This document shows positions 19,426 to 45,005 of a stretch of DNA of 64,000 bases, piece after piece (within the stretch, counting starts at the first letter, position 1; each line of letters begins with the position of its first letter). This stretch comes from Alphaproteobacteria bacterium (GTDB lineage: Bacteria; Pseudomonadota; Alphaproteobacteria; JAEULC01). The position numbers and the translations under genes were made by a program. The stretch is from the NCBI GenBank assembly GCA_023150455.1, contig JAKLKW010000001.1, forward strand, positions 74,907 through 138,906, written 5' to 3'. The notes below the pieces were generated by a model that saw only the letters and a program-made list of their open reading frames with translations, did not search any database and had not been told where the DNA came from.

Positions 19426-19494
19426 GTGTCTCATTGTCATGTTCGGTTGACGGCCGGGACCTGGGTTATCACCGCCTTGGACAGGGCGAGCTAA
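19426..19494 (+). other. Mini-ORF (22 codons, GTG start) preceded by a 15-17 nt perfect complement of the 16S rRNA 3' end (GAAAGGAGGTGATCCAG)
   Basis: Seen in sequence: gaaaggaggtgatccaGTGtctcattgtcatgttcgg...gcgagcTAA. Function unknown (leader peptide, sRNA or regulatory element). Confidence 0.25.
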
Positions 19495-19533
19495 CCCGAC
19501 GTTTTGGTCCTCGGCACCGACCGAGGGACAATG

Positions 19534-19563
19534 GAAGGGCCGCTTCGAAAGAAGCGGCCCTTC
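19534..19563. terminator. Perfect 13-bp stem hairpin GAAGGGCCGCTTC-GAAA-GAAGCGGCCCTTC (GNRA-type tetraloop) in the 500-nt intergenic region; no U-tract on either strand
   Basis: Seen directly; preceded by a second imperfect hairpin GTCCTCGG-cacc-gac-CGAGGGAC at about 19508-19530. Confidence 0.3.
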
Positions 19564-27870: not shown

Positions 27871-28824
27871 ATGACGGCCAAGGTATTCGCGTCGCAGGGC
27901 GACCTCGCGGCGAAGCAGGAGAAATTCGTCAAGCTGGCGGACAACGCCTACTGCCTGACGGCCGAAGGCGACCCGAATACGGGCATCATCATCGGCAACG
28001 ACGGCGTCATGGTGATCGACACGCGCGCCACGCCGGCCATGGCCGAGGACGTCATCCGCCATGTCCGCGCCGTCACCGACAAGCCGTTCAAGTACGTGCT
28101 GCTCACGCACTACCACGCCGTCCGGGTCATGGGCGCCTCGGCCTACAAGGCCGACTACGTCATCGCGAGCCAGGGCACCTACGAGCTGATCAAGGAGCGC
28201 GGCAAGCAGGACTTCGACAGCGAGGTGCAGCGCTTCCCGCGCCTGTTCCGCTCGGTCGAGTCGGTGCCGGGCCTCACCCGGCCGAACCTGGTGTTCGAGA
28301 ACGCGCTGACCCTGTGGATGGGCAAGACCGAGGTGCAGATCAGGCATATCGGCAAGGGCCACTCCAAGGGCGACACGATCGCCTGGCTGCCGCAGGAGCG
28401 CGTGATGTTCGCCGGCGACCTGGTGGAGGAAGGCACGACGCCCTATTGCGGCGATGCCTATCTCAAGGAATGGCCGGCGACGCTGGAGAAGCTGCGCGGC
28501 TTCAAGCCGGAGATGCTGGTGCCCGGCCGCGGCGATGCGATGATGACCGCCGAGGCCAGCGACAGGGCGATCGCCGCTACCGCCGGCTTCCTGCGCGACA
28601 TGCGCAGCGCGGTGGAGGCCGGCGTCAAGGCGGGCAAGGACCTGAAGGCGGTGTTCGAGGAGACGTCGCGCAGGCTGCAGCCGAGATACGGCCGGTGGGT
28701 CATTTTCGAGCACTGCCTGCCGTTCAACATCTCGCGCTGCTACGACGAGGTTTCCGGCATCACCGACCCGCGCATCTGGACGGCCGAGCGCGACATCGAG
28801 ATGTGGAAGGCGCTGCAGGGGTAG
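27871..28824 (+). CDS. MBL-fold metallo-hydrolase
   Basis: Metallo-beta-lactamase-like motif LLTHYHAVRVMG and downstream His/Asp ligand candidates (GKGHSKGDT); 317 aa. Confidence 0.75.
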   Translation: MTAKVFASQGDLAAKQEKFVKLADNAYCLTAEGDPNTGIIIGNDGVMVIDTRATPAMAEDVIRHVRAVTDKPFKYVLLTHYHAVRVMGASAYKADYVIASQGTYELIKERGKQDFDSEVQRFPRLFRSVESVPGLTRPNLVFENALTLWMGKTEVQIRHIGKGHSKGDTIAWLPQERVMFAGDLVEEGTTPYCGDAYLKEWPATLEKLRGFKPEMLVPGRGDAMMTAEASDRAIAATAGFLRDMRSAVEAGVKAGKDLKAVFEETSRRLQPRYGRWVIFEHCLPFNISRCYDEVSGITDPRIWTAERDIEMWKALQG

Positions 28825-28841
28825 GGCGCGTGGCCGACCTG

Positions 28842-30032
28842 ATGCGGGGCCTGCGGGTCCTCGACCTCACCAACGTGCTGGCCGGTCCGTTCTGCTGCTT
28901 CCAGCTCGCGCAGCTGGGGGCCGAGGTGATCAAGGTCGAGGTGCCCGAGACGGGCGACCTCGCGCGTGAGCTGGGCGCGGCGCCCGAGCTCAACCGACGC
29001 AGGATGGGCGCATCGTTCCTGGCGCAGAATGCCGGCAAGCGCTCGATCACCATCAACCTGAAGGACGGGAAGGGGAAGGAGATCTTCCGCCGTCTGGCCG
29101 CAACGGCCGACGCGGTGGTGGAGAATTTCCGTCCCGGCGTGATGGAGCGGCTCGGCCTCGGCTACGATGCGCTGGCGCGCATCAAGCCCGACCTGGTCTA
29201 TTGCGCCATCTCCGGCTTCGGGCAGGACGGGCCCTTGCGCGACAACCCGGCCTACGACCAGATCATCCAGGGCTTCTCCGGCGTCATGAGCGTCACGGGC
29301 GACGCCCGGAGCGCGCCGTTGCGCGTGGGCTATCCGGTCGCCGACACGATGGGCGGCATCACGGCGGCCTTCGCCATCGCCGCCGCGCTGCTGAAGCGCG
29401 AGCGCACCGGAAAGGGCGAGTTCATCGACGTGTCGATGCTCGAGGCCACGCTGGTGGCGATGGGCTGGGCGGTGTCGAACTGGCTGATCGCCGGCGTGAA
29501 GGGCGAGCCGATGGGTAACGAGAACGTGACGGCAAGCCCGTCCGGCACCTTCGCGACCGGCCATGGCCCCCTGAACATCGCCGCCAACAAGCAGGCGCAG
29601 TTCGAGAGGCTGTGCAACGTCATCGGCCGGCCCGAGCTGATCGCGGATCCGCGCTTCGCCCATCGCGAGGATCGCCTCGTCAACCGCGCGGCGCTGAAGG
29701 CGGAGATCGAGAATGGCCTCCAGCGCGATTCCGCGCGCAACTGGGCCGAGCTCCTGAACCGCCACGACGTGCCGGCGGGCGAGGTGCTCTCGGTGCCGGA
29801 GGTGCTGGAGCACGCGCAGGTGCGCGAGCGTGGTTTCATCAAGCGCTTCGACACGGTTACGGGCGTCGACCGGCCCGTCGCCATGGTGCGCGCCGGCTTC
29901 AAGCTTGGGAGCGGCGATCCCGCGCCCGAGCTGCCGCCGCCGCCGCTCGGCGCCGATACCGACGCCATCCTCGGTTCGCTCGGCTACTCGGGCGACGAGA
30001 TCGCCGCCTTCAGGGCCGACAAGACCATCTGA
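28842..30032 (+). CDS. Family III CoA-transferase (CaiB/BaiF/Frc family)
   Basis: N-terminal LRVLDLTNVLAGPFCCFQLAQLGAEVIKVE, and NFRPGVMERLGLGYD with catalytic-Asp region; 396 aa. Start ATG 28842 (GTG 28830 is an alternative). Confidence 0.85.
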   Translation: MRGLRVLDLTNVLAGPFCCFQLAQLGAEVIKVEVPETGDLARELGAAPELNRRRMGASFLAQNAGKRSITINLKDGKGKEIFRRLAATADAVVENFRPGVMERLGLGYDALARIKPDLVYCAISGFGQDGPLRDNPAYDQIIQGFSGVMSVTGDARSAPLRVGYPVADTMGGITAAFAIAAALLKRERTGKGEFIDVSMLEATLVAMGWAVSNWLIAGVKGEPMGNENVTASPSGTFATGHGPLNIAANKQAQFERLCNVIGRPELIADPRFAHREDRLVNRAALKAEIENGLQRDSARNWAELLNRHDVPAGEVLSVPEVLEHAQVRERGFIKRFDTVTGVDRPVAMVRAGFKLGSGDPAPELPPPPLGADTDAILGSLGYSGDEIAAFRADKTI

Positions 30033-30070
30033 CGTCTCGCCCGGCTGCCTCGCCACGAAAGGGCTCTGCC

Positions 30071-30883
30071 ATGGACACGCGCAACGCCGCCGAGGACTGG
30101 TGGCGCACCTCGATCATCGAGATGCGCCCGAACGTCATCCGCTTCCGCGGCTACCCGATCGAGGAGCTGATCGGCAATGTCGGCTTCCCCGGCATGATCT
30201 GGCTGATGCTGAGGGGCGAGCTGCCGACCCAGGCGCAGGCAGACCTGCTGGGCGCGGCGATGGTCGCGGGCGTCGATCACGGACCGCAGGCGCCGTCGAT
30301 CGCCATCGCCCGCATGGCGATCACCTGCGGCGTCGGCATCAACGGCGCCATGGCCTCGGCCGCCAACGTGCTGGGCGACGTGCACGGCGGCGCCGGCGAG
30401 CAGGCGCTCGCGCTCTACGAGCGGGTGCTGCGGCGCCAGGCCGAAGGGGCGTCGCTCGAGGATGCCGCCGCGGCGGAGCTCGATGCGCTGGCCGCGCGCG
30501 GGGTCGCGCACGTGCCCGGCTTCGGCCATCGCTTCCACACCGAGGACCCGCGGCCGCCGCGCATGTTCGAGCTGATCGACCGCGCCGTCGCCGCAGGCGC
30601 CGTTTCCGGCAAGGTCGCTGCCGCCGCGCGGGCGATCGACGCCGCGCTGGCGCGCAAGAAAGGCAGGCGCATCACCATGAACATCGACGGCGCGACGGCG
30701 GCGGTCTATGGCGAGCTGGGCTTCCCCGCGCCGCTCGCGCGCGGCCTGTTCGTTCTGTCGCGCTCGGTCGGCATCCTGGCGCATGCCTGGGAACAGTCGC
30801 AGCAGGGCGGCCGCAACAAGGGCCCGATCCCGCGCGAGTGCCTATGGACCTATGACGGGCCCACGTTGCGCCACGTGGAGTAG
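30071..30883 (+). CDS. Citryl-CoA lyase-like / citrate-synthase-fold small protein (about 270 aa)
   Basis: Citrate-synthase-like C-terminal domain residues (..VPGFGHRFHTEDPR.., ..MNIDGATAAVY..). Confidence 0.65.
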   Translation: MDTRNAAEDWWRTSIIEMRPNVIRFRGYPIEELIGNVGFPGMIWLMLRGELPTQAQADLLGAAMVAGVDHGPQAPSIAIARMAITCGVGINGAMASAANVLGDVHGGAGEQALALYERVLRRQAEGASLEDAAAAELDALAARGVAHVPGFGHRFHTEDPRPPRMFELIDRAVAAGAVSGKVAAAARAIDAALARKKGRRITMNIDGATAAVYGELGFPAPLARGLFVLSRSVGILAHAWEQSQQGGRNKGPIPRECLWTYDGPTLRHVE

Positions 30884-30918: not shown

Positions 30919-33090
30919 TCACGCCGGCTTCATCACCCTGAACCGCGCATCCCCGTCGCGCTCGATCTGCGGGACGAGCGCGACCTCCCAGGTCAGGTAC
31001 TCGCGCATCTTCTGCTCGGGCGCGCCGCGGTTCTCGTAGGGCTTGTACCAGACGTCCTCCGGCGGGTCGGCCCATTGCTCGTCGCCGGCCTCGAGCCGGT
31101 GGCCGGCGGCGCGCCAGGCCTCGGTGCCGCCGTCGAGCACCAGCACCTTGCGCGCCGTCCTGGGCGCGAGGTCGCGCGCGGCGAACCGCGCGAGCGTGCC
31201 GTCGGGCGAGGCCAGCACGATCGGGCCGTCGCCCGGCAGGCTGGCGACGGTGTCGCCGAGCCGCGCGCGAATTACGAACCAGGCGCCGGGAATATGCGCC
31301 GCGCGGTACCTGAGGCTCGTGTCCAGGTCGACGACGGTCACGCGGCCGAGCTGCCGGTCGAGATCGTCGGCCGCGATCGTCGCGACCGCGGCGTCGTCGC
31401 CCAGCACGGTCGCCTTCTCCGGACCCTTCTCGAGCTTCTGCCCGTCCAGCGCCTTGTCTAGCACGTAGACCTCGCGCCAGCCCATCTGGATCAGCCAGGA
31501 CGCCGTCATGACGGCGCGCACCGCCTCGCCGTCGATCAACACGAGTCGCGCGTTCAGCGTGCCGACATACTGGTCGGTCGCCTGCACCAGCTGGCCGCCC
31601 GGCGCCGAGCGGCTGCCCGGCAGGTGGCCGGCCTCGTACTCGGCCGGGCTGCGCACGTCGAGCACGTAGAGGGAATGCCTGTCCGCCTCGGCGCGGAAGC
31701 GCGCGAGGGCGGCATGGTCGATGCGTCGCACGCCGAAGCGCCCGGCCACGCTCCGGGCCGCTGCCTGCGCGCGCTCGAGGCCCTCGGGTCCCGGCGCCGG
31801 GGCGTGCTGCGTCTTGCCGTGGTCCAGCTTCAGCCCGGCGAGGTGCCAGCCCATCGTGCCGTTCTTCAGCGCCATGACCTTGTTGGGCAGCCCGGCGTTG
31901 ACCAGCGACTGCGTGCCGATGATGCTGCGTGTCCTGCCGGCGCAGTTCACCACGACCAGCGTCTCGGGCGACTTCACCAGGTCGAAAGCGCGGTAGACCA
32001 GCTCGGCGCCCGGGCAGTCGATGCCGCCGGGGATGCTCATGCGCCGGTACTCCTCCAGCGGCCGGCTGTCGAGGATGACGATGTCCTCGCCGCGGTCGAG
32101 CCGCGCCTTGAGCTCGGTCGGCTCGATGCGCGGTGTGCCGCATTTGTGCTCGACGATCTCGCCGAAGGCCTTGCTCGGCACGTTGACGCCGCTGAACAGC
32201 TCGTAGCCCGCCTTCTGCCAGCCGCGCACGCCGCCCTTGAGAACGGCGATGTTCTTGTAGCCGAGGTCGAACAGGCGATAGGCGGCGCGCTGCGCCAGGG
32301 CGCCGCCGTCCTCGTCGACCACGACCACGCGCGTCGCTCGCCGCGGCACCAGCGCGTCGGCGCGCAGCTCCAGGTGGCTCACCGGCAGCGGCACGGCGAA
32401 CAGCAGGTGCTCGCTCGCGAATACGCCCTCCTCGCGCACGTCCAGGATCGCAAGCTCCCCGCCGTCGCGGATCATGGCCTTGAGGGCCTGTGGCGTGACC
32501 TCGGGCGTCGAGATGTTGGGGCTGGCCGGGAAGATCTTGTAGGCGCCGCCCTCGGACGTCGCGAAGCTGATGCGCTCGGGCAGGTGCTCCAGGCTGCGGC
32601 CATAGAGATGCAGGTGCAGCGCCTTCTCGTTTCCCAGCACCTCGATCGTGTGAAAGTCGTCGGGCAGGAACGACACGGCGTTGCCCTTGACCACGGTCAG
32701 CTCGCCGGTCTTGCGGAGGCGGCCCTCGCCCGGCACCGAGCGGTTGTCGATGCGCTCGTAGAAGACGTTGTGCTCCTTGCCGTAGACGCCGGCGATCACG
32801 GCCCAGGTCGTGTGGTTGTGCGGCGGCTGCGCCTTGCCCGGCAATCCCGCCGACGCGTAGAGGGCGAAGCGGTGATCGGCGTCCTCGGCCAGGCGGAAGA
32901 TGCGGCCATGGCTGCCGTCGAACACCTGGAACTGCTCGGGCGGGAACAGCTCGGTGCGCGAGGCGAGATCGATCAGCACGGGCTTGATCCGCGCCAGTGC
33001 CGCCTGCGTGACGCCGTCCTCCTGCTCGATGCGGCGCACCTTGGCGATCGTGTCGGCGACGGCCTGATGGCGGGCATCCATGGTCGACAT
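30919..33090 (-). CDS. Fusion protein: cysteine-dioxygenase-type (3-His) cupin thiol dioxygenase domain followed by four tandem rhodanese modules (only the second has the catalytic Cys loop)
   Basis: N-terminal cupin with PHNHTTWAVIAGVYG...H in FLPDDFHTIEV (CDO/3-mercaptopropionate-dioxygenase-like H-x-H...H triad). Four rhodanese-like modules: LDVREEGVFASEHL (loop VVVDEDGG, Asp), LDSRPLEEYRRMSIPGG (loop VVVNCAGRTRS, Cys), LDVRSPAEYEAGHLPGS (loop LVLIDGEAV, no Cys), VVDLDTSLRYRAAHIPG (loop IVLASPDGT, no Cys). Start at ATG 33090 (33081 also possible; 33189 would overlap tctA). Confidence 0.8.
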   Translation of the reverse strand: MSTMDARHQAVADTIAKVRRIEQEDGVTQAALARIKPVLIDLASRTELFPPEQFQVFDGSHGRIFRLAEDADHRFALYASAGLPGKAQPPHNHTTWAVIAGVYGKEHNVFYERIDNRSVPGEGRLRKTGELTVVKGNAVSFLPDDFHTIEVLGNEKALHLHLYGRSLEHLPERISFATSEGGAYKIFPASPNISTPEVTPQALKAMIRDGGELAILDVREEGVFASEHLLFAVPLPVSHLELRADALVPRRATRVVVVDEDGGALAQRAAYRLFDLGYKNIAVLKGGVRGWQKAGYELFSGVNVPSKAFGEIVEHKCGTPRIEPTELKARLDRGEDIVILDSRPLEEYRRMSIPGGIDCPGAELVYRAFDLVKSPETLVVVNCAGRTRSIIGTQSLVNAGLPNKVMALKNGTMGWHLAGLKLDHGKTQHAPAPGPEGLERAQAAARSVAGRFGVRRIDHAALARFRAEADRHSLYVLDVRSPAEYEAGHLPGSRSAPGGQLVQATDQYVGTLNARLVLIDGEAVRAVMTASWLIQMGWREVYVLDKALDGQKLEKGPEKATVLGDDAAVATIAADDLDRQLGRVTVVDLDTSLRYRAAHIPGAWFVIRARLGDTVASLPGDGPIVLASPDGTLARFAARDLAPRTARKVLVLDGGTEAWRAAGHRLEAGDEQWADPPEDVWYKPYENRGAPEQKMREYLTWEVALVPQIERDGDARFRVMKPA

Positions 33091-33160: not shown

Positions 33161-34642
33161 CTAGCGTGCCCGCAGCCGCCGCCAACCATGCGCCAGGGCC
33201 GGCGCGCTGAGGCCCAAGATCGTCAGCGCGAACAGCAGCACCACGATCGGGCGCGACAGGAACAGCAGCCAGTTCTGGTCGAAGATCAGCAGCGACTGCT
33301 TGAACGTCTCCTCGACCATGCGTCCCAGCACCAGGCCCATGATCAGCGGCGCGGGCGAGAAGCCGAAGCGGCGGAACAGCAGGCCGAGCACGCCGAAGAC
33401 CAGCATCGTGCCGACGTCGAACATCGACTGGTTCGGCGCATAGGCGCCGACGACCGACAGCACGAACACGCCGGGCCACAGATAGGCCGGCGGGATCAGC
33501 GTCACGCGCGCGAACAGCTTGGCGGCGCCGAGGCCGAGCACGAGATAGAGCAGGTTGGCCGCCAGCATCGAGGCGAACACGACATAGAGCAGGGTCGGCT
33601 GCTCGTTGAACAGGTGGGGGCCTGGGCGCACGCCCTGCACGATCAGCCCGACCAGGATGATGGCGGTCGTGGCGCTGCCGGGGATGCCGAGCGCCAGCGT
33701 CGGCACCATGGCGCCGCCGACCGCGGCGTTGTTGGCGGCCTCGGGGCCCGCGACGCCCTCGATCGCGCCGCGGCCGAACTCGAGCTTGTGCTTCGACCAG
33801 CGCCGGCTCTCGTTGTAGCAGATCATGGCGGCCGTGGTGGCGCCCAGCGCCGGCAGCGTGCCGATGAAGGTACCGATGCCGCTCGACAGGATGATCGCCT
33901 TTGCGCATTTGCGGAAATCGGCCAGGCTCGGCAGTTTCACCGCGCTCAGCTTGATGTATTCCTTCACCACGTTGCCGTGCGCGGCCTGCTCCAGCAACTC
34001 GGCCATGGCGAACAGGCCGATCAGCACGGGGATGAACTCGATCCCGTCGCTCAAGGCGTAGATGCCGAAGGTGAAGCGCTCGACGCCCGTGGTCAGGTCG
34101 AGTCCGACGGTGGCCAGCAGCACGCCGAAGGCGGCCGACAGCAGGTTCCTGGTCGGCGAGTCGCCGCCGATCGCCGCCACCATCGACAGGCCGAACACGG
34201 CGAGCGCGAAGTATTCGGGCGGGCCGAAATTATAGGCGGCGCGCGCCAGCAGCGGCGCGGCGACGATCAGCACGAACACGCTGAAGATCCCGCCGATGGC
34301 GCTGGAGATCGCGGAAATGCCGAGCGCCTTGCCCGCTTCGCCGCGCGCTGCCATCGGGTAGCCGTCGAATGCGGTGGCGGAGGCCGACGGGTCGCCCGGG
34401 GCGTTGATCAGGATCGCCGTGATCGAGCCGCCGAAATTGGCCGCGCAGTAGATCGATCCGAGGAAGGCGAGCGCGCCGGTCGGCGGCATGGTGATCGTAA
34501 GGGGCAGCAGGAGCGCCGTCGTGGTGCTGCCGCTGATTCCGGGCAGCGCGCCGACGATGATGCCGAGCAGCGTGCCGGCGAACACGAGGAACAGCATGTA
34601 GGGATCGACGAGGATCCCCATGCCGGCGAGGAAGGCGTCCAT
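33161..34642 (-). CDS. tctA: Tripartite tricarboxylate transporter (TTT) large permease TctA
   Basis: 493-aa polytopic protein with typical TctA N-terminus (..VFAGTLLGIIVGALPGISGSTTTALLLPLT..) and duplicated structure. Confidence 0.9.
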   Translation of the reverse strand: MDAFLAGMGILVDPYMLFLVFAGTLLGIIVGALPGISGSTTTALLLPLTITMPPTGALAFLGSIYCAANFGGSITAILINAPGDPSASATAFDGYPMAARGEAGKALGISAISSAIGGIFSVFVLIVAAPLLARAAYNFGPPEYFALAVFGLSMVAAIGGDSPTRNLLSAAFGVLLATVGLDLTTGVERFTFGIYALSDGIEFIPVLIGLFAMAELLEQAAHGNVVKEYIKLSAVKLPSLADFRKCAKAIILSSGIGTFIGTLPALGATTAAMICYNESRRWSKHKLEFGRGAIEGVAGPEAANNAAVGGAMVPTLALGIPGSATTAIILVGLIVQGVRPGPHLFNEQPTLLYVVFASMLAANLLYLVLGLGAAKLFARVTLIPPAYLWPGVFVLSVVGAYAPNQSMFDVGTMLVFGVLGLLFRRFGFSPAPLIMGLVLGRMVEETFKQSLLIFDQNWLLFLSRPIVVLLFALTILGLSAPALAHGWRRLRAR

Positions 34643-34655
34643 CAGCCCGGCCTTT

Positions 34656-35153
34656 TCACGACCACAGCGCGCCGAGCATGCTGCGCGGGAAGCTCACGCC
34701 CACGAAGCGGACGAACAGCAGGTAGATCGCGGTGCACAAGGCTCCGGCGCTGAGCACGAGCGGCAGCAGCCGGCGCTCGCCCCACATCCGGCCCAGCCCG
34801 ACCAGGAGCAGGAACGAGGACGGGAACATGCCGATCAGCTCGACCGCGCCCATGAAGGCGAACAGCACGGCGCCGGTCGCCCACACGCGCGCCGGCAGCG
34901 GCGGCATCGGACCGAGCGGCGCGACGCCGACGCCGAGCGCGATCAGCAGCGACAGGATCGCCATGACGACGAGGACGAGTCGCGGAAACAGCTCGGCACC
35001 CAGCCCGCTCATCAGTGCCTCGGGCACGCTGTCGAAGGTGTAGGTCAGGCCATAGACGAGTGCCGAGAACGCCAGCGCCGAGAAGGCGACGACGCGGTCG
35101 ATCGCGCCCGGCGAGGGCGAGCCCCCGCCGGGCCGGCCGGACGATCCCGACAT
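34656..35153 (-). CDS. tctB: TTT small membrane subunit TctB
   Basis: 165 aa, 4 TM, located between tctC and tctA with 3- and 13-nt spacers. Confidence 0.75.
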   Translation of the reverse strand: MSGSSGRPGGGSPSPGAIDRVVAFSALAFSALVYGLTYTFDSVPEALMSGLGAELFPRLVLVVMAILSLLIALGVGVAPLGPMPPLPARVWATGAVLFAFMGAVELIGMFPSSFLLLVGLGRMWGERRLLPLVLSAGALCTAIYLLFVRFVGVSFPRSMLGALWS

Positions 35154-35156: not shown

Positions 35157-36152
35157 CTACTTCAGGAGGCCGATCGACTTCAGCGCCTCGGCACCTTCGT
35201 TGTAGAAGGCGTCGAGCTGCGCCTGCCATTCCTTGCGCCCGACCACGCTGTCCGGCGACTGGCCGGAGCTCTCGATGTAGGACGCGTACATCTTGCCCTT
35301 CATCGCCTTGACCAGCCCTTCTTCCAGGGCCTTGAGGTTCTCTTCCGGCACGCCCTTCAGCGTCACGAAGCCGCGCACGGTCGAATAGCTGGCGTCGAGG
35401 CCGAGGTCCTTCGAGCACGGTACGTCGGGCAGGGGCCCCAGGCGCTTCGGCGCCAGCACCAGCAGCGGGCGCACGTCGCCCGACTTGATCTGTGAATCGG
35501 CCTCGGCGTAGTTCAGGATGCCGACGTCGACGTTGCCGCCGACGACGTTGATCACGATGTCGCCGCCGCCGCGGAACGGCACGACGGTCGGCTTCTCCTG
35601 ACCGGCCTTCTTGGCGAAACCCAGCACGGCCAGGTGGTCGACGCCGCCAAGCTGCGTGGCGCCGTATTTCATCGACTTCTTCTTGCCCGCCTCCAGGAAG
35701 TCCTTCGCCGTCTTGTACGGGCTGTTCTTGCCCGCCATCAGCACCTGCGGGTCGTCGGTCGCGCGCGCCAGGGCCACGATCTCGGCGTACTTCACCGGCG
35801 CCTTGCCCTGGATCATGGTCAACAGATGCGTCTGCGTGATCAGCATGATCGTGTAGCCGTCGCGCGGGCGGCTGTTGGCGTAGGCAAGCGCCGCGCCGCC
35901 GCTGCCGCCCACCTTGTTGACCACGGCCAGCTCGGTCTTGAACACGCCCGGCGCATGCACCATCATCATGCGCGCCGTGATGTCCGTGCCGCCGCCGACC
36001 CCGGCATGCGTCACCACCTCGATCGTCTTGGACGGGAACTTCTCCTGTGCCCGCAACGGGCTCCAGGCCAGCGCCGTCGTGGCTGCGGCGCCTGCGGCGA
36101 AGGCGCGGCGCGTGAGCGCGAGGCTGCGGTGGTCGGTGATCTTCCTGGTCAT
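35157..36152 (-). CDS. tctC: TTT periplasmic substrate-binding protein TctC (Tat signal RRAFAAGAAATTALA)
   Basis: Bug/TctC-family body (..VVNKVGGSGGAALAYA.., ..PFRGGGDIV..); perfect SD AAGGAGG 7 nt upstream of ATG 36152; the upstream part of the 610-aa ORF is read-through. Confidence 0.9.
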   Translation of the reverse strand: MTRKITDHRSLALTRRAFAAGAAATTALAWSPLRAQEKFPSKTIEVVTHAGVGGGTDITARMMMVHAPGVFKTELAVVNKVGGSGGAALAYANSRPRDGYTIMLITQTHLLTMIQGKAPVKYAEIVALARATDDPQVLMAGKNSPYKTAKDFLEAGKKKSMKYGATQLGGVDHLAVLGFAKKAGQEKPTVVPFRGGGDIVINVVGGNVDVGILNYAEADSQIKSGDVRPLLVLAPKRLGPLPDVPCSKDLGLDASYSTVRGFVTLKGVPEENLKALEEGLVKAMKGKMYASYIESSGQSPDSVVGRKEWQAQLDAFYNEGAEALKSIGLLK

Positions 36153-36193: not shown

Positions 36194-36952
36194 TCACGCG
36201 CCGGCGGCAGCCTTGCGGCGGCGCGGCGCGGGTTGCGCCGGAGCCTGCTTGTCGTTGTCCAGGGTCTTCAAGAGCCGCGCCTTGCCCGCGAGGATATGCG
36301 CCTCCATCAGCGCCGCGGCGCGCTGCGGGTCGCGCGCGGCAAGCGCGTCCAGAATGGCGCGATGCTCGCGGTTGGAGATCCGCATGACGCCTTCCGACAC
36401 CAGGCCGCGGCGGCGGAACAGGTGCAGCTCCTTCGCCAGATTGCGGTAGGTCGCGGTCAGGTGCGCGTTGCCACAGAATTCCACCAGCGTGGAATGGTAT
36501 TCGACGTTGAGGGGGTAATAGGCGTCGATGTCTTCGACCGCCTTCTCCATCGCCTCGACCAGCGCGGTCAGGCGGGTAAGCTGCGCCGGGGTGATGCGCG
36601 CGGCCAGCGTGCGGCCGGCGAAGCCGAACAGCGCGCCGCGCAGGTCGTAGATGTCGAGCGCCTGCTGCAGGCCGATCTGGCGCACGAAGGTGCCGCGATT
36701 GACCTGCACCTCGACCAGCCCGCTCTGCTCCAGCCCGCGGCAGGCCTCGCGGATCGGTCCGCGGCTGACGCCCAGCCGCTCGGCCAGGGCGTTCTCGTTC
36801 AGGCGGTCGCCGGCCTGGAGCTCGCCCGTCACGATCATGCGCTCGAGCTCCTTGCGCACGAGCGAGGCGAGCGATTCCGTGCGCCTGATCTTCAGCGCCA
36901 GCGCGGTGTCGCCCCCCTCGTCCTTGGGCGTGCGATCGGCCTGCTCGTCCAT
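36194..36952 (-). CDS. GntR family transcriptional regulator (FadR/FCD subfamily)
   Basis: N-terminal wHTH (..LNENALAERLGVSRGPIREACRGLEQSGLVE..) plus C-terminal FCD-type helical domain; 252 aa. Confidence 0.85.
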   Translation of the reverse strand: MDEQADRTPKDEGGDTALALKIRRTESLASLVRKELERMIVTGELQAGDRLNENALAERLGVSRGPIREACRGLEQSGLVEVQVNRGTFVRQIGLQQALDIYDLRGALFGFAGRTLAARITPAQLTRLTALVEAMEKAVEDIDAYYPLNVEYHSTLVEFCGNAHLTATYRNLAKELHLFRRRGLVSEGVMRISNREHRAILDALAARDPQRAAALMEAHILAGKARLLKTLDNDKQAPAQPAPRRRKAAAGA

Positions 36953-37088: not shown

Positions 37089-38288
37089 ATGATGCCGTTC
37101 CGTCCCGCCTCGTCCGCGCTCAAACGCTTCACCGTGCTCGACCTCACGCGCGTGCGGTCCGGCCCGACGGCGGTGCGGCAGCTGGCCGACTGGGGCGCCA
37201 ACGTCATCAAGATCGAGATGCCGGAAGGGCTCGAGCCGGGCGACGCGCCGGGCGGGCCGCGCCACGGCTCGGACTTCCAGAACCTGCACCGCAACAAGCG
37301 CAGCATGACGCTGAACCTGAAGTCGCCCGAGGGCGTCGAGATACTCAAGGCGATGGCCGGGAAGGCGGACGCGATCGTCGAGAACTTCCGCCCCGACGTG
37401 AAGACGCGGCTCGGCATCGACTACGAGGCGATGCGCGCGGTCAACCCGCGCATCGTCTACGGCAGCATCTCGGGCTTCGGCCAGGACGGGCCGTATCGCG
37501 ACCGGCCGGGCTTCGACCAGATCGCCCAGGGCATGGGCGGGCTGATGTGGATCACCGGCATGCCGGGGCAGGGACCGGTGCGCGTCGGCATCCCGATCGC
37601 CGACCTCACCGCCGGCATCTTCTGCGCCTACGGCATCGTCGTGGCGCTGCTCGAGCGCGAGGTGTCGGGCCAGGGCCAGTGGGTGCACACCTCGCTGCTG
37701 CAGGCGCAGATCTTCATGCTCGACTTCCAGGCCTCGCGCTGGCTGATGGACGGCGAGGTGCCGCCGCAGGCGGGCAACAACCATCCGACCAGCATCCCGA
37801 CCGGCGTGTTCAAGACCGCGGACGGCCACATCAACATCGCCGTCACCGGCCGCAAGATCTGGGAGCGGTTCTGCCACGCGATCGGCGCCGCCGACCTGAT
37901 CGACCACAAGGACTATGCGACTGCCGCCGACCGGTCGAAGAACCGCAACGCGCTCAATGCCGAGATCGAGAAGCGGCTCCAGGGCATGGGCAGCGACGCG
38001 GTGATCGAGAAGCTCAACGCCGCGGGCGTGCCCTGCGGACAGATCTACAAGATGGACCAGGTCTTCGCCGATCCGCAGGTCGAGCACCTGAAGACCTATG
38101 TCGAGATCGACTCGCCCGCCCGCGGCCCGGCCACCAGGTTCGTGGCCCAGCCGGTCCGGCTCGAGCGCACGCCGAGCTCGGGCCAGCTGCCGCCGCCCGG
38201 GATCGGCCAGCACACGGACGAGATCCTGCGCGAGTTCGGCTACGACGACGCGGCGATCGCCGGCTTCCGCCAGCGCCGCGTCGTCTGA
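37089..38288 (+). CDS. Family III CoA-transferase (second copy; CaiB/BaiF/Frc family)
   Basis: FTVLDLTRVRSGPTAVRQLADWGANVIKIE, ENFRPDVKTRLGIDYE; 399 aa; divergent from gntR. Confidence 0.85.
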   Translation: MMPFRPASSALKRFTVLDLTRVRSGPTAVRQLADWGANVIKIEMPEGLEPGDAPGGPRHGSDFQNLHRNKRSMTLNLKSPEGVEILKAMAGKADAIVENFRPDVKTRLGIDYEAMRAVNPRIVYGSISGFGQDGPYRDRPGFDQIAQGMGGLMWITGMPGQGPVRVGIPIADLTAGIFCAYGIVVALLEREVSGQGQWVHTSLLQAQIFMLDFQASRWLMDGEVPPQAGNNHPTSIPTGVFKTADGHINIAVTGRKIWERFCHAIGAADLIDHKDYATAADRSKNRNALNAEIEKRLQGMGSDAVIEKLNAAGVPCGQIYKMDQVFADPQVEHLKTYVEIDSPARGPATRFVAQPVRLERTPSSGQLPPPGIGQHTDEILREFGYDDAAIAGFRQRRVV

Positions 38289-38310
38289 CACGCTCAAAGG
38301 AGATAGGGAC

Positions 38311-39099
38311 ATGACGACGGAAAAGATGCTGGCGCGCAAGGACGGCGCCGTCGGCTGGATGAAGTTCAACAACCCCGAGCGGCACAATGCCGTGTCCCTC
38401 GAGATGTGGCGCGCGGCGGAGAAGATACTGTCCGACTTCGCCGAGGATCCGGCGGTGCGCGTCATCGCCATCACCGGCGCCGGCGGCAAGGCCTTCGTGT
38501 CGGGCGCCGACATCTCGAAGTTCGAGAGCGAGCGCGCCTCGATGGAGGCGGTCGAGCACTACAACAGGACGACCGCCCGCGTGTACAGCATGCTGAACGA
38601 CATCGGCAAGCCGACCATCGCCATGATCCGCGGCTACTGCATCGGCGGCGGTGTGGCGCTGGCCGTGTGCTGCGACCTGCGCATCTGCTCGGACAACTCG
38701 AAGTTCGGCGTGCCGGCGGCCAAGCTCGGGCTCGGCTATGCCCTGCCGGGCATCAAGCGGCTGGTCGACCTGGTCGGTCCTTCCTTCGCCAAGGAGATCT
38801 TCTTCACCGCCCGCCAGTTCTCGGCCGCGGAAGCGGCGGTGATGGGCCTCGTCAACCGGGTCGTGCCCGAGGCCGAGCTGCAGGACTACGTGCAGAACTA
38901 CGCCGACACGATCGCCGGCAACGCGCCGCTCACCGTATGCTCGGTCAAACGGATCGTCGGCGAGGCGCTGAAGGACGCCGAGCAGCGCGACGTCGCCCTG
39001 TGTGAGCGCCTGGTCAAGGAATGCTTCGGCAGCCAGGACTACATCGAGGGCCGCCGCGCCTTCATGGAGAAGCGCAAGCCTGCATTCGTCGGGCGGTAG
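38311..39099 (+). CDS. Enoyl-CoA hydratase/isomerase (crotonase) family protein
   Basis: Crotonase fold blocks (..ITGAGGKAFVSGADISKF.., ..IAMIRGYCIGGGVALAVCCDLRI..); 262 aa. Confidence 0.85.
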   Translation: MTTEKMLARKDGAVGWMKFNNPERHNAVSLEMWRAAEKILSDFAEDPAVRVIAITGAGGKAFVSGADISKFESERASMEAVEHYNRTTARVYSMLNDIGKPTIAMIRGYCIGGGVALAVCCDLRICSDNSKFGVPAAKLGLGYALPGIKRLVDLVGPSFAKEIFFTARQFSAAEAAVMGLVNRVVPEAELQDYVQNYADTIAGNAPLTVCSVKRIVGEALKDAEQRDVALCERLVKECFGSQDYIEGRRAFMEKRKPAFVGR

Positions 39100-39119
39100 G
39101 TCAGCGCGTCGCATGGGCG

Positions 39120-39230
39120 GCGAGCCAGCGTCCTTCGACAAGCTCAGGACGAGGTAATAGTCTTACCGGCGGAAACAACAGTCCTCATCCTGAGCTTGTC
39201 GCCCTTCGGCCAGCCCAGGAGACGCTGGCG
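39120..39230. repeat. Palindromic intergenic repeat, copy A (hairpin GCCAGCGTCCTTCGACAAGCTCAGGACGAGG...CCTCATCCTGAGCTTGTCGCCCTTCGGCCAGCCCAGGAGACGCTGGC)
   Basis: Seen directly; related copies at about 45006-45094 and about 60560-60705. Confidence 0.5.
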
Positions 39231-41015
39231 ATGTCTGCCCCCGGAGGAACCATGCCCGTGCTTTCCACCGACACGACGACCGCGGCGCCGCAGGGGATCG
39301 CCTCGCTGAGGCCGACCATCGCGGCGCATGACCACATGGCGGTGGCCGGGCATTACGGCGCGGCGCATGCGGCCTTCCGCGTGCTCGAGGCAGGCGGCAA
39401 CGCGGTCGATGCCGGCGTCGCCGGCGGCATCGCGCTCGGGGTGCTGCAGAGCGACATCGTGAACGTGGCCGGCGTGGCGCCGATCCTGATCTACCTGGCC
39501 GAACGCGACGAGGTGGTGTCGATCGCCGGGCTCGGCACCTGGCCCGCCGCGGCCGATGTCGAGCGCTTCCGGCGCGAGTTCGGCGGCCATGTCCCGAGCG
39601 GCATCCTGCGCACCGTCGTGCCGGCGGCACCCGCCGCCTGGATCGCCGCGCTCGAGCGCTTCGGCACGATGAGCTTCGGCGAGGTCGCCGCGGCCGCGAT
39701 CCGCTTCGCGCGCGACGGCTTCGCGCTGCACCAGCTGATGGCCGAGATCATCGCCGAGCACGAGGCCGACTACCGCAAGCAGCCGGAGAAGGCGGCGATC
39801 TACCTGCCGGGCGGCCGTCCGCCCAGGGCCGGCGACAAGTTCGTGCAGGCCGACCTCGCGCGCACACTGCAGTTCATGGCCGACGAGGAGAGGAAGGCGG
39901 CCGGCAGGGGGCGCGCGGCGGGGCTCCAGGCCGCGCGCGACGCCTTCTACAAGGGAGACATCGCCCGGGCGATCGTCAAGCATCACCGCGCCAACGGCGG
40001 CTGGATGGAAGCGGCGGACCTCGCCGGCTTCGCTGCCGAGATCGAGCCGGCGGTGCGCGTGCGCTACAAGCAGTACGACGTCTTCACCTGCCCGGCCTGG
40101 TGCCAGGGCCCGGCCATGGCCCAGGCCTTCAAGCTGGTCGACGGCATCGACCTGCGCGGCCTCGGGCACAACTCGCCGGCCTACCTGCACGTCGTGGCCG
40201 AGGCGCTGAAGCTCGCCTTCGCCGACCGCGAGCGCTATTTCGGCGATCCGCGCTTCGTCGACGTGCCGGTCGCGCGCCTGCTGTCGGACGACTACATCCG
40301 CGCGCGGCGTGCCCTGATCCGTCCCGACCGCGCCTTCCCGGGCCTGCCGCCCGCGGGCGAGCTCGGCGGGCGTGGCGGCGCCGAGCCGCGGCCCTCGGCG
40401 GCGGCATCGCGGCCGGCGCTCGACACGTCCTATGTCTGCGTCGTCGACAAAGAGGGCAACGCCTTCTCGGCGACGCCGAGCGACAGCTCCTATGACGGCG
40501 AGGTGATCCCCGGCACCGGCCTGGTGCCGTCGACGCGCGGCAGCCAGAACTGGTGCGAGCCTTCGCATCCCTCGGTGGTGGCGCCCGGCAAGCGCCCGCG
40601 CCTGACGCCGAGCCCGGCGCTGGCGCTGGGCCGGCGCGGCCGCAAGGGCAGGGAGGTGCTTCCCTTCGGCACGCCGGGCGGCGACGTGCAGATCCAGGCC
40701 ATGCTGCAAACCTTCCTCAACCGCGTCGAGTTCGCCATGGAGCCGCAGCGCGCGGTCGAGCAGCCGCGCATCGCCACCTACAGCTTCCCGGACTCGTTCG
40801 AGCCGCACGGCTACCAGCCCGGAAGGCTCAACCTCGAGGCCCGCCTGCCGCGCGCCACAGGCGAGGCGCTCGCCGCCCTCGGCCACGACGTGCAGTGGTG
40901 GCCGCAGTGGATCTGGCGCGCCGGCGCCACCTGCCTGATCCACAGCGACCCCGACACCGGGCTGCTGTCCGCCGGCGCCGACCCGCGCCGCGCCTGCTAC
41001 GCGCTGGGGTGGTGA
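39231..41015 (+). CDS. Gamma-glutamyltransferase family protein (second GGT paralog, no signal peptide)
   Basis: N-terminal GGT block (..AGHYGAAHAAFRVLEAGGNAVDAGVAGG..) and nucleophile region RPALDTSYVCVVDKEGNAFSATPSD; 594 aa from ATG 39231. Confidence 0.8.
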   Translation: MSAPGGTMPVLSTDTTTAAPQGIASLRPTIAAHDHMAVAGHYGAAHAAFRVLEAGGNAVDAGVAGGIALGVLQSDIVNVAGVAPILIYLAERDEVVSIAGLGTWPAAADVERFRREFGGHVPSGILRTVVPAAPAAWIAALERFGTMSFGEVAAAAIRFARDGFALHQLMAEIIAEHEADYRKQPEKAAIYLPGGRPPRAGDKFVQADLARTLQFMADEERKAAGRGRAAGLQAARDAFYKGDIARAIVKHHRANGGWMEAADLAGFAAEIEPAVRVRYKQYDVFTCPAWCQGPAMAQAFKLVDGIDLRGLGHNSPAYLHVVAEALKLAFADRERYFGDPRFVDVPVARLLSDDYIRARRALIRPDRAFPGLPPAGELGGRGGAEPRPSAAASRPALDTSYVCVVDKEGNAFSATPSDSSYDGEVIPGTGLVPSTRGSQNWCEPSHPSVVAPGKRPRLTPSPALALGRRGRKGREVLPFGTPGGDVQIQAMLQTFLNRVEFAMEPQRAVEQPRIATYSFPDSFEPHGYQPGRLNLEARLPRATGEALAALGHDVQWWPQWIWRAGATCLIHSDPDTGLLSAGADPRRACYALGW

Positions 41016-41139
41016 AAGCAGCCTCGCGCCTGCCTGCGGCGGGCCAGGGTTGAACGGTTGAGCCGCCCGCCTTCCTCACCTAGGATGCGGCGGCGAGAAG
41101 CAACAACCGCCGGGGCAGGCGGGAGCAGGGGGCCTTTCC

Positions 41140-42081
41140 ATGTACGCCTTCATGGCGCGACGCCTGTTGGCATCGATCCCGGTGATCGTCGTGGTGGCGG
41201 CGTTCGTCTTCCTGCTGCTGCACATCGCGCCCGGCGATCCGGCCGCGATCATCGCCGGCGACATCGCCACCGAGGCGCAGATCCAGAGCATCCGCGTCCG
41301 GCTCGGCCTCGACCAGCCGCTCCACGTGCAGTTCTTCCAGTGGGCGGCGCATCTCGTCCGCGGCGACCTGGGCACGTCGATCTTCTCCAACCTGCCGGTC
41401 AGCCGGCTGATTGGCCAGCGCCTGGAGCCGACCATCGCGCTCACCGTGCTGACGATGATCTTCGCCATCGTCGTGGCCGTGCCGATCGGCGTGATCGCCG
41501 CCTGGCGCGCCGGCACCTGGATCGACCGCTCGATCATGGGTTTCGCCGTGCTGGGCTTCTCGGTGCCGGTCTTCGCCCTCGGCTATTTCCTGATCTGGGT
41601 GTTCGCGGTCCGGCTCGAGGTCCTGCCGGTGCAGGGCTACCAGCCGCTCAGCGCCGGGCTCGGCAAGTTCCTCGAGAGCATCCTGCTGCCGTCGCTGGCG
41701 CTGGGCATCGTCTACATCGCGCTGATCGCGCGCATGACGCGCGCCAGCATGATCGAGGTCTTGAGCCAGGACTACGTGCGCACCGCGCACGCCAAGGGCC
41801 TGTCGCAGCTGCCGATCCTGCTCATCCATGCGCTCAAGCCCGCCTCGGTGCCGATCGTCACCACGATCGGCATCGGCGTCGCGCTGCTGCTCGGCGGCGT
41901 GGTGGTGACGGAGAGCGTGTTCAACATCCCCGGCCTCGGCCGGCTGACGGTCGACGCGATCCTGCATCGCGACTACCCCGTGATCCAGGGTGTGATCCTG
42001 GTCTTCGCCGTCATCTACCTCGCCATCAACCTGGCCGTGGACCTGATCTACACGGTCCTCGATCCGCGCATCCGGTACTGA
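41140..42081 (+). CDS. ABC transporter permease, DppB/OppB-type
   Basis: 313 aa, conserved N-terminus MARRLLASIPVIVVVAAFVFLLLHIAPGDP and EAA-loop region (..MTRASMIEVLSQDYVRTAHAKGLS..). Confidence 0.9.
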   Translation: MYAFMARRLLASIPVIVVVAAFVFLLLHIAPGDPAAIIAGDIATEAQIQSIRVRLGLDQPLHVQFFQWAAHLVRGDLGTSIFSNLPVSRLIGQRLEPTIALTVLTMIFAIVVAVPIGVIAAWRAGTWIDRSIMGFAVLGFSVPVFALGYFLIWVFAVRLEVLPVQGYQPLSAGLGKFLESILLPSLALGIVYIALIARMTRASMIEVLSQDYVRTAHAKGLSQLPILLIHALKPASVPIVTTIGIGVALLLGGVVVTESVFNIPGLGRLTVDAILHRDYPVIQGVILVFAVIYLAINLAVDLIYTVLDPRIRY

Positions 42082-42085
42082 CGCC

Positions 42086-42957
42086 GTGACCGTCGCCGCA
42101 CTTCCGGAAACCACGGCACGGCGCCGCCGTTCGCCGCTGACGGAGGCGATCCGCCGCCATCCCACGGTCACCGCGGGCCTCGCGATCATGGCGGTGCTGG
42201 TGGCGATGGCGGTGCTGGCGCCCTATCTCTGGACCATCGACCCGATGAAGCTCGACCCGCGCTTCCGCCTCAAGCCGCCGTCGGAGCGCAACTGGTTCGG
42301 CACCGACCATCTCGGCCGCGACCTCTACAGCCGCGTGATCTACGGCAGCCGCGTGTCGCTGCAGGTCGGCCTCGCCGTGGCCGTGGTGGCGACGCTGATC
42401 GGCACGGCGATCGGGCTCGTCGCCGGGTTCCTGCGCTGGGTCGACGCCCTGGTGATGCGCGTCATGGACGGGCTGATGGCGGTGCCGGGCGTGCTGCTGG
42501 CGATCGCGCTGATGGCGCTGACGCGCGCCAGCCTCGAGACCGTCGTGATCGCGATCGTCATCCCCGAGGTGCCGCGCGTGGTGCGCCTGGTGCGCTCGGT
42601 GGTCCTGACCCTGCGCGAGCAGGCCTTCGTCGAGGCCGCCGAGGCGATCGGCACCCGCTTCCACCGCGTGCTGGCGAAGCACATCCTGCCAAACGCCGTG
42701 GCGCCGCTGATCGTGCAGGCGACCTACATCTGCGCCTCGGCCATGATCCTCGAGGCGATCCTGAGCTTCCTCGGCGCCGGCACGCCGCCGACCATCCCGA
42801 GCTGGGGCAACATCATGGCCGAGGGAAGGCAGTACGTGCGCGTCGCCTTCTGGCTGCTGGGCTTCCCCGGCCTGTTCCTGACGCTGACCGTGCTGGCGGT
42901 GAACCTGCTCGGCGACGGCCTGCGCGACATGCTCGATCCCCGCATGCGGCGGCGGCT

Positions 42958-42961
<4 letters not shown>
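42086..42961 (+). CDS. ABC transporter permease, DppC/OppC-type
   Basis: 291 aa; GTG start; typical DppC body (..NWFGTDHLGRDLYSRVIYGSRVSL.., EAA region). Confidence 0.9.
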
Positions 42962-44018
<1,057 letters not shown>

Positions 44019-44022
<4 letters not shown>

Positions 44023-45005
44023 CCGCGAGCATGGCCCAGGCGGCATCGCCGCTGCTCGATGTCCGCGGCCTGGTGAAGCATTTCGTCATCGGCGGCGGCT
44101 TCCTCGGCAAGCCCAAGGCCACGGTGCGCGCCGTCGACGGCATCGACTTCAGCCTGAACGCGGGCGAGACGCTGGGCCTGGTCGGTGAGAGCGGCTGCGG
44201 CAAGTCGACCGCGGGCAAGACGATCCTGCGCCTGCTGGCGCCGACGTCCGGCACGATCCACCTGCGCGGCGCGGACATCTCGGGCCTCAGCAAGGCCGAG
44301 ATGCGCCCCTACCGGCGCGACATGCAGGTGATCTTCCAGGACCCGTATTCCTCGCTCAACCCGCGCATGAACGCCGGCGAGATCGTCGGCGAGCCGATGC
44401 TGAACTACGGGCTCGCCACCGCGTCCGAGCGGCGCGGGAAGGTGGCCGAGCTGTTCCAGCGCGTCGGCCTGCGCGCCGACTCGATGGTGAAGTACCCGCA
44501 TGAGTTCTCCGGCGGCCAGCGCCAGCGCCTGGGCATCGCGCGCGCGCTCGCGCTCCAGCCCGGCCTGATCATCTGCGACGAGCCGGTTTCCGCGCTCGAC
44601 GTCTCGGTGCAGGCGCAGATCATCAACCTCCTGATCGACCTGCAGCAGTCCTTCGGTCTGTCCTACCTGTTCATCGCGCACGACCTCGCCGTCGTGCAGC
44701 ACATCAGCCAGCGCGTCGCCGTGATGTATCTCGGCAAGATCGTCGAGCTGGCGCCGACCGGCGAGCTCTTCGCCAACCCGCTTCATCCCTACACCGAGGC
44801 GCTGCTCGCCGCCGTGCCCGCGGCGAACCCGAAGGAGCGCAGGACGCGCGCGCTCTTGACCGGCGACGTGCCGAGCCCGATCAGCCCGCCCCCCGGCTGC
44901 CGCTTCCACACCCGCTGCCCCCACGCCGAGGCCCGCTGCAAGCTCGAGGAGCCGGCGCTGAAGCAGACGGCCGCTGGGCACAGCGTCGCGTGCCATCTGC
45001 GGTAA
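44019..45005 (+). CDS. ABC transporter ATP-binding protein, DppF/OppF-type
   Basis: Walker [10 protein letters not shown], signature [12 protein letters not shown], Walker B IICDEP; ATGA overlap with the upstream gene. Confidence 0.9.

Follow-up and report, generated by a model that had tools for sequence, protein, structure and literature searches.

Fusion of a cupin thiol dioxygenase with four rhodanese modules that hold a single predicted catalytic cysteine

The gene located at positions 30919-33090 (minus strand) of the 64,000-nucleotide (nt) stretch of alphaproteobacterial DNA that we analysed, hereafter the window (contig JAKLKW010000001.1, positions 74,907 to 138,906), encodes a protein of 723 amino acids in which a cupin thiol dioxygenase is followed by four rhodanese modules. 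As the best explanation of our data, we propose that this fused protein is a cytoplasmic two-activity enzyme, of which rhodanese module 2 is predicted, from alignments and a structural model, to be the only catalytically competent sulfurtransferase module. The gene represents the fused form of an operon pair already known, namely a thiol dioxygenase and a rhodanese of the type of Pseudomonas aeruginosa PA2603, and a cupin-fold analogue of the fusions between a persulfide dioxygenase (PDO) and a rhodanese. In the literature, we found no description of a fusion between a thiol or cysteine dioxygenase and a rhodanese, and none of the PA2603 structure 1yt8, including a paper describing this structural-genomics entry (a 2005 crystal structure).

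The four rhodanese modules and their catalytic loops

The gene and its parts are as follows (amino-acid numbers are those of the whole product).

30919-33090, minus strand: whole gene, cupin thiol dioxygenase and four rhodanese modules (list of open reading frames and translation; 723 codons and a stop codon)
32530-33090, minus strand: cupin thiol dioxygenase domain, amino acids 1-187 (match to 8vni; model TM 0.91)
32497-32529, minus strand: junction, amino acids 188-198 (the alignment to mercaptosuccinate dioxygenase, MSDO, stops at MSDO residue 186, which is query residue 185)
32191-32496, minus strand: rhodanese module 1, amino acids 199-300, predicted non-catalytic, loop VVVVDEDGGALA (D259 codon at 32314-32316)
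31825-32133, minus strand: rhodanese module 2, amino acids 320-422, the sole module predicted to be catalytic, loop CAGRTRS (C383 codon at 31942-31944)
31447-31731, minus strand: rhodanese module 3, amino acids 454-548, predicted non-catalytic, motif PGGQLVQATD (D520 codon at 31531-31533)
31096-31383, minus strand: rhodanese module 4, amino acids 570-665, predicted non-catalytic, motif T/A-S-x-D-G (S628 codon at 31207-31209)
30922-31095, minus strand: C-terminal tail, amino acids 666-723, with a helix at 691-712 (aligned to residues ~480-529 of 1yt8; secondary structure of the model)

This architecture, which an earlier note on the same DNA had described as four rhodanese modules appended to a cupin dioxygenase, was recovered from the following lines of evidence. 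First, Pfam returned four tandem Rhodanese domains (PF00581; E 1.2e-47, 161 bits versus a cutoff of 22.2), and no other family at E <= 1 in the 723-amino-acid protein. Second, searches against PDB sequences matched residues 2-185 to the MSDO 8vni of Variovorax paradoxus (E 7.1e-37), and residues 204-720 to residues 15-529 of the 1yt8 (PA2603) chain in a single HMMER alignment with few gaps (E 2e-140). Third, the AlphaFold model, built on 63 homologues, is confident, linker included (pLDDT 94.1; pTM 0.92), and Foldseek aligned it to both 1yt8 (TM 0.96; rmsd 1.7 Å) and 8vni (TM 0.91), with no PDB entry spanning both the cupin and the rhodanese halves among the structure matches. We prefer the start codon at 33090 to an alternative ATG at 33189, which would give a longer open reading frame running into the end of the upstream TctA gene, because a ribosome-binding site (AGGAA) lies 9 nt upstream of 33090, because the N-terminal MS.M..R is common to the query and to its homologues of 719-730 amino acids, and because the fused gene of a 90%-identical relative (L082) is called at 720 amino acids, 71 nt past TctA.

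The residues that occupy the position of the catalytic cysteine in modules 1 to 4 are D259, C383, D520 and S628, respectively, as set in three independent ways: the gapless alignment with PA2603/1yt8, HMMER alignments of single modules and the AlphaFold model. In the model, each of them is the first residue past the central strand (residues 254-258, 378-382, 515-519 and 624-627) and stands before a helix, C383 being placed between the strand 378-382 and the helix 387-398. In the alignments, the CAGRTRS loop of C383 is identical to that of module 2 of PA2603, D520 pairs with the cysteine of the Francisella rhodanese 6mxv, and S628 pairs with both the module-4 cysteine of PA2603 and the catalytic cysteine of the B. 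phytofirmans protein PRF (BpPRF), the latter residue being identified from the wild-type/mutant pair 5ve3 (Cys) and 5ve4 (Ser). In module 1, the loop of which is one residue longer than that of PA2603, HMMER sets E260, not D259, opposite the cysteine; either candidate is acidic. The four loops quoted in the earlier note are therefore indeed the catalytic ones, and its statement that only module 2 keeps a catalytic cysteine stands. Its description of the three others as having Asp or no nucleophile is right for the Asp of modules 1 and 3 and has to be amended for module 4, where the position is held by Ser628, not by Ala627. A serine cannot carry a persulfide.

The whole protein holds three cysteines, C317, C359 and C383. 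Both C317 and C359 were considered as a second catalytic cysteine and rejected, since neither of them lies at a catalytic position. C317 occupies a variable linker position. C359 (window 32014-32016; GGIDCPG) is in module 2, just past a strand and 24 residues ahead of C383; all 121 close fused homologues have Cys at this position, whereas about half of the wider family have V, A or L, and PA2603 has Val. No extra cysteine thus occupies an active site. In rhodaneses of the sulfurtransferase form, the cysteine comes first in a six-residue loop (PMC9163753); the loop of module 2 is of this form, with six residues including two arginines and then a serine, and those of modules 1, 3 and 4 are not. 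A single cysteine does not allow a persulfide to be relayed from cysteine to cysteine between modules, which removes the persulfide shuttling among modules that had been suggested.

It is worth noting that the one-cysteine-in-four layout is an ordinary trait of the large and widespread PA2603-type family (1086 clusters at E <= 1e-30), not a peculiarity of the query. In a sample of 152 sequences, made up of the query, PA2603 and 150 representatives of clusters at 50% identity, D-C-D-S is the most frequent four-position pattern (75 sequences, fused and unfused members alike), other patterns being D-C-D-A (17), D-C-D-C (13, PA2603 included) and D-C-D-G (9). The module-2 cysteine is kept in 151 of the 152 sequences, and a module-4 cysteine occurs in only 16, so that the latter is not a family-defining feature. 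One active module next to three inactive ones is the common state of the family and is not surprising in itself.

Nor are the Cys-less modules simply degenerate, as the earlier note had called them. They do not drift freely, because D520, S628, D630 and G631, like the C383-A-G-R-T-R stretch, are invariant in 63 fused homologues (45-90% identity), where D259 is conserved at 90% or more, and because module 3 contains motifs that rank among the most conserved in the family. The family columns conserved at 90% or more number 22/103 in module 2, 14/95 in module 3, 9/102 in module 1 and 2/96 in module 4, and the PGGQLVQxTD peptide of module 3 is one of the two most conserved family peptides, which were chosen for the metagenome scan described below.

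Another invariant peptide, SKAFGE (amino acids 306-311; window 32155-32172), lies in the helix that joins modules 1 and 2. PA2603 has this peptide too, and a contribution of it to the active site of module 2 is possible.

Association of the cupin with the four-rhodanese body

That the cupin and four-rhodanese activities belong together in one pathway is well supported, because they are encoded by adjacent genes or by fusions in most loci, and because they have been fused more than once. We used an alignment of unfused four-rhodanese proteins to search metagenomes, and counted the loci with at least 750 nt of upstream sequence (n = 65). A cupin of the thiol-dioxygenase type was found directly upstream, on the same strand, in 46 of these 65 loci (71%): it is MSDO-like in 31 loci (9 fusions and 22 separate genes, many of which overlap by 1-9 nt), of the CDO_I/3MDO type in 2 and of a third, divergent type in 13. 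An independent fusion joins a CDO_I-type cupin to four rhodaneses (P0219). Such fusions and adjacency constitute Rosetta-stone evidence for one pathway. Published gene arrangements point the same way, since PA2602 (3MDO) adjoins PA2603, the pair being apparently one transcription unit in P. protegens, and since msdo is clustered with rhodanese and cystathionine beta-lyase genes in V. paradoxus B4 and Advenella mimigardefordensis. Together, these data bear out the view of the earlier note that the two halves work together.

The third cupin type (loci L128, L124, L125, L129, L130, L139, L148, L149, L151 and L157-L160) is about 178 amino acids long, has no Pfam hit, and has 8vni as its sole PDB match (E 1e-5; for example L128, 1463-1999, plus strand). 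It keeps the HDH motif, the third histidine and the equivalent of MSDO R175, and lacks the HxHxY outer-sphere motif. With respect to the residue at the catalytic position of module 4, a cysteine accompanies CDO_I/3MDO-type partners in 3 of 3 loci, in PA2603 and in P0219 (small numbers), and a serine accompanies MSDO-like partners in 33 of 38 cases (metagenome loci L083-L162).

Could the fusion be incidental, that is a chance joining or an artefact of assembly or annotation? We regard this as hardly credible. The variable gene neighbourhood, and nothing more, speaks for it, whereas the best 120 homologue clusters (90% identity; 719-798 amino acids) and the best 80 genomic loci (52-73% identity; from several proteobacterial classes) are all full-length fusions, the two genes are adjacent in 46 of the 65 loci, and the interdomain arrangement of the model is confident (pTM 0.92). 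The fusion is found in many Alpha-, Beta- and Gammaproteobacteria, the fused loci coming from Stellaceae, Reyranella, Rhodospirillales, Burkholderiales, Nitrosomonadales, Acidiferrobacteraceae and SAR324; Stella vacuolata ATCC 43931, the genome of which is complete, carries a full-length copy (AP019702, locus L032). The names given to these fusions in databases are generic, such as 'rhodanese-related sulfurtransferase/predicted metal-dependent enzyme'.

The four-rhodanese body also occurs in other combinations. In P0232 (919 amino acids) it is followed by a C-terminal pyridoxal-phosphate enzyme of Cys/Met metabolism (cystathionine beta-lyase-like), which echoes the betaproteobacterial cluster of msdo, beta-lyase and rhodanese genes, and in P0169 (745 amino acids) by a C-terminal nitroreductase domain. 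A cystathionine beta-lyase-like gene was rejected as a core partner, being nearby in only 2 of 80 metagenomic loci, plus the P0232 fusion. A gene for a small ACT-domain protein of about 141 amino acids recurs at 4195-4620 (minus strand) of L097 and in 11 other metagenome loci; it runs opposite to the cupin/four-rhodanese pair and in most cases lies immediately upstream of it.

The cupin domain and the proposed chemistry

From its alignments and the model, the N-terminal domain is predicted to belong to the MSDO branch of the 3-His Fe(II) cupin thiol dioxygenases. Since it has no match to the Pfam family CDO_I (PF05995), its membership among thiol dioxygenases rests on PDB sequence and fold matches. 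It is 38% identical to MSDO, the 3MDO entries 4tlf/3uss match it more weakly than 8vni does (E 2.3e-5), and Foldseek matches its fold to 8vni, 4tlf, 6xb9 and CDO. The alignment to MSDO predicts H91, H93 and H147 as the Fe ligands, H159, H161 and Y163 as outer-sphere residues, R173 as the carboxylate-binding residue and R66 as a family-specific arginine. H91, H93, H147, H161 and Y163 pair with H93, H95, H149, H163 and Y165 of MSDO, and R173 is the equivalent of R175, which in MSDO binds the Fe-coordinating proximal carboxylate of the substrate (bioRxiv 10.64898/2026.05.19.726356). No variation is seen across 121 fused sequences at the three Fe-binding histidines, at H159/H161/Y163 or at R173.

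The residues that handle the other end of the substrate are different. In MSDO, the distal carboxylate of mercaptosuccinate is bound by Q64, R66 and N82, of which R66 is reported to be essential (bioRxiv 10.64898/2026.05.19.726356). These residues are replaced by G62, I64 and S80 in the query, and by G/S/A, V/I/L and S/A in the fused clade. Instead, a conserved arginine (query R66, in the motif Y/F-R-L-A-E-D) is found two positions beyond I64 in the same strand. This shift of the arginine is common to nearly all rhodanese-linked MSDO-like cupins, so that it is the characterised MSDO that departs from the rule. The sequence thus suggests that the substrate is probably a mercapto-carboxylate and, given the replacement of the three distal-carboxylate residues, that the cupin is something other than a strict mercaptosuccinate dioxygenase. 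It should not be filed as an MSDO, and the replaced triad is a warning against annotating such proteins as mercaptosuccinate dioxygenases.

How might the two halves cooperate? We give even credence to the idea that the product of the cupin is captured in cis by the C383 persulfide, as thiosulfate or thiosulfonate. The cupin would oxidise, with O2, a small mercapto-carboxylate, imported or endogenous and not necessarily mercaptosuccinate, which would bind the iron through its thiolate and its proximal carboxylate, the latter being held by R173. The product would be a sulfinate, which may release sulfite. The sulfinate produced by MSDO does decay to sulfite (bioRxiv 10.64898/2026.05.19.726356), but, as the query cupin is not a bona fide MSDO, spontaneous sulfite release is not to be assumed. 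The C383 persulfide would then give its sulfane sulfur to the sulfite or the sulfinate, rhodaneses being able to pass sulfane sulfur to sulfite (PMC9163753), and the reactive oxidised sulfur would thereby not be released free. The three Cys-less modules would provide a fixed scaffold and binding surfaces, as does the inactive N-terminal domain in two-domain rhodaneses. In CstB, oxidised sulfur is shuttled to the persulfidated rhodanese cysteine and only thiosulfate leaves the enzyme; by analogy with CstB and BpPRF, the in-cis handling of sulfite or persulfide proposed in the earlier note is plausible. The presence of both activities on one polypeptide allows this coupling to be tested directly, with one protein and one Cys-to-Ser mutant.

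Several points weigh against this capture. A cupin directly upstream is missing in 19 of the 65 four-rhodanese loci. The neighbourhood of the fused gene is not conserved in 80 other genomic loci; the context therefore gives no substrate, and the arrangement seen in the window is given little weight. In P. protegens, the deletion of tst, the homologue of PA2603, caused no significant change in 3-mercaptopropionate levels, and this absence of a phenotype comes from the only genetic test of a four-rhodanese protein that we found. The 3-sulfinopropionate made by 3MDO is a stable sulfinate; the capture of sulfite is therefore not the general logic of the pair, whereas the thiolation of a sulfinate could be. 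Finally, sulfur flows in the opposite direction in BpPRF, another dioxygenase-rhodanese fusion, where the dioxygenase is supplied with a persulfide formed from thiosulfate and a thiol (PMC9163753).

This last system inspires the main rival explanation, which we hold to be possible and rather doubtful: module 2 would use thiosulfate or another sulfane donor to persulfidate a thiol, or would strip or add sulfane sulfur, and the cupin would then oxidise the resulting compound to yield sulfite for assimilation. The CAGRTRS loop with its two arginines suits an anion such as thiosulfate, and the small or hydrophobic G62, I64 and S80 leave room for a different or bulkier sulfur substrate. However, MSDO and 3MDO oxidise plain thiols efficiently without any rhodanese, the query has the same Fe site and R173 as these enzymes, and there are no thiosulfate importer or assimilation genes nearby in the window.

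The junction between the halves bears on another explanation. Residues 189-194 of MSDO have a gating role, as a substrate-dependent C-terminal gate (bioRxiv 10.64898/2026.05.19.726356). From the alignment, the junction (amino acids 188-198) would correspond to the C-terminal gating loop of MSDO (~187-196); in the model it is predicted to be ordered, with short strands (pLDDT 84-91). The four-rhodanese body might then act mainly as a scaffold or a regulator, with C383 as a redox or persulfide switch, or with the body holding the gating loop, so as to tune the access to the dioxygenase. In favour of this idea, which we find unlikely, are the probable coincidence of the fusion point with the gating loop, the rigid model with its ordered linker, the lack of a cysteine in three of the four modules, the modulation of SQR activity by a fused rhodanese domain in C. 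pinatubonensis (PMC9163753), and the abolition of O2 consumption by the PDO domain of CstB upon the C408A mutation of its rhodanese. Against it, the CAGRTRS loop is invariant family-wide, even in the members without an adjacent cupin, which argues for a chemical activity of module 2 that has been conserved.

A role of the rhodanese part in mobilising sulfur for a cofactor, such as the molybdenum cofactor of an enzyme that oxidises sulfite, appears very improbable. It was once suggested for the rhodanese encoded beside msdo in V. paradoxus B4 (PMC5373536), and the best NCBIfam similarity, far below the cutoff, is to the rhodanese part of MoeB/MoeZ. Nevertheless, all NCBIfam scores are far under the cutoff (124.7 versus 449), the window has no molybdenum-cofactor or sulfite oxidase genes in the neighbourhood, and such a role leaves unexplained the tight translational coupling, or fusion, with three different types of cupins.

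Returning to the coupling of the two activities, a bolder and doubtful extension of it is that the rhodanese-linked cupins, namely the fused clade, the adjacent MSDO-like cupins with the motif Y-R-[LV]-[AS]-E-D and the third type, constitute a new class of thiol or persulfide dioxygenases, defined by its substrate and obligatorily coupled to a single rhodanese cysteine. They would act either as a cupin-based counterpart of CstB, with oxidised sulfur going directly onto the C383 persulfide to give thiosulfate or a thiosulfonate and no free sulfite, or by oxidising a persulfide made by C383, and the characterised MSDO, with its R66, would then be an atypical offshoot.

Gene neighbourhood and comparison with known systems

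The genes next to the fused gene in the window are as follows.

36194-36952, minus strand: GntR/FCD regulator (Pfam)
about 35157-36152, minus strand: TctC (Pfam)
34656-35153, minus strand: TctB (Pfam)
33161-34642, minus strand: TctA (Pfam)
27871-30883, plus strand: metallo-beta-lactamase-fold protein, family III CoA-transferase and citryl-CoA lyase, converging on the 3' end of the fused gene

The GntR-TctCBA genes are possibly in an operon with the fused gene, from which TctA is separated by a 70-nt gap, and their membership in the system is uncertain. The Tct neighbours suggest carboxylate uptake; in V. paradoxus, receptors of the Tct type serve for thio-dicarboxylates (PMC8102459). TctCBA may equally serve the converging plus-strand genes rather than the dioxygenase; among these, the citryl-CoA lyase scores 429.9 bits in NCBIfam versus a cutoff of 261. 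The metallo-beta-lactamase-fold neighbour was rejected as a persulfide dioxygenase: it best matches 8d2z, which is uncharacterised, and it scores below the cutoff both as a SoxH-like protein and as a B1 lactamase. We also rejected an inference of the substrate from the gene neighbourhood, as the GntR-TctCBA and converging genes recur in the same order only in the 90%-identical relative L082, and not in the 80 other genomic loci. In about 15-18 genomes of the Reyranella group (L056-L080; for example L058, 12706-13434), the fused gene is not part of a catabolic operon; it is isolated, with a lytic-transglycosylase-like gene on one side and the ATP synthase F0 genes on the other, and about 10 loci have a separate CDO_I-like cupin a few kb upstream. 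A scan for promoters and terminators around the fused gene gave nothing informative.

Elsewhere in the window, the plus-strand genes at 37122-45005, divergent from GntR, encode a second family III CoA-transferase, an enoyl-CoA hydratase and a gamma-glutamyltranspeptidase, then Dpp/Opp-type ABC permeases and an ATPase, possibly a cluster for glutathione or peptide utilisation. A match to the Caulobacter small RNA CC2171 (RF01867) at 19402-19561 (plus strand; 76.3 bits versus a gathering score of 75 in Rfam) is consistent with the alphaproteobacterial origin of the window. At 6979-7070 (plus strand), ARAGORN called a 92-nt tRNA-Ala (CGC), a doubtful call since Rfam has no tRNA match there at the gathering score.

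Among the known systems, PA2603, named a 'thiosulfate sulfurtransferase', is closest to the rhodanese half of the query. Its four modules and C-terminal tail are colinear with those of the query over about 515 residues (49% identity in Foldseek), it has CAGRTRS in module 2 and Asp at the cysteine position of modules 1 and 3, and it is likewise linked to a thiol dioxygenase. This dioxygenase is, however, the product of the neighbouring, unfused gene PA2602 (3MDO), and is of the CDO_I/3MDO type whereas that of the query is of the MSDO type. In addition, module 4 of PA2603 keeps its cysteine (VLTCGSS), unlike the query and most of the family, which have Ser.

MSDO (V. paradoxus B4, 8vni; A. mimigardefordensis) is the best characterised relative of the cupin. 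The query keeps its 3-His Fe site and the equivalents of its residues H161/H163/Y165, K88, A99 and R175. MSDO is a free-standing protein of 196 amino acids, the C-terminal loop of which gates the site, whereas in the query this segment would be the linker to module 1. The 3MDO enzymes (PA2602 and Av3MDO; 4tlf and 6xb9) resemble the query cupin in fold and in their 3-His site (Foldseek TM 0.73-0.81 for the different 3MDO chains), share with it an arginine that binds the Fe-coordinating carboxylate, and are encoded in an operon with a four-rhodanese gene. They are, however, only about 19% identical to the query cupin and belong to Pfam CDO_I, to which the query cupin has no match.

The two-domain rhodaneses (bovine TST, E. 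coli SseA and A. vinelandii RhdA) consist of an inactive N-terminal module and a catalytic C-terminal module. A weak match (E 0.03-0.09) links residues 58-104 of module 1 to the inactive N-terminal domain of both bovine rhodanese and SseA, but the query chain has two such pairs, the second of which lacks a cysteine. An origin by duplication of an inactive plus active pair was rejected beyond analogy, the HMMER scores between modules having no clear 1~3 / 2~4 pattern.

Lastly, CstB of S. aureus and PRF of B. phytofirmans (5ve3/5ve4), the rhodanese of which aligns with module 4 of the query, resemble the query in that a non-heme Fe sulfur dioxygenase is joined to a rhodanese with one catalytic cysteine. 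This resemblance is a functional analogy only, with no homology of the dioxygenase parts, since the dioxygenase of CstB and PRF has a metallo-beta-lactamase fold, acts on persulfides and is joined to a single catalytic rhodanese domain, whereas that of the query has the cupin fold and is joined to four modules.

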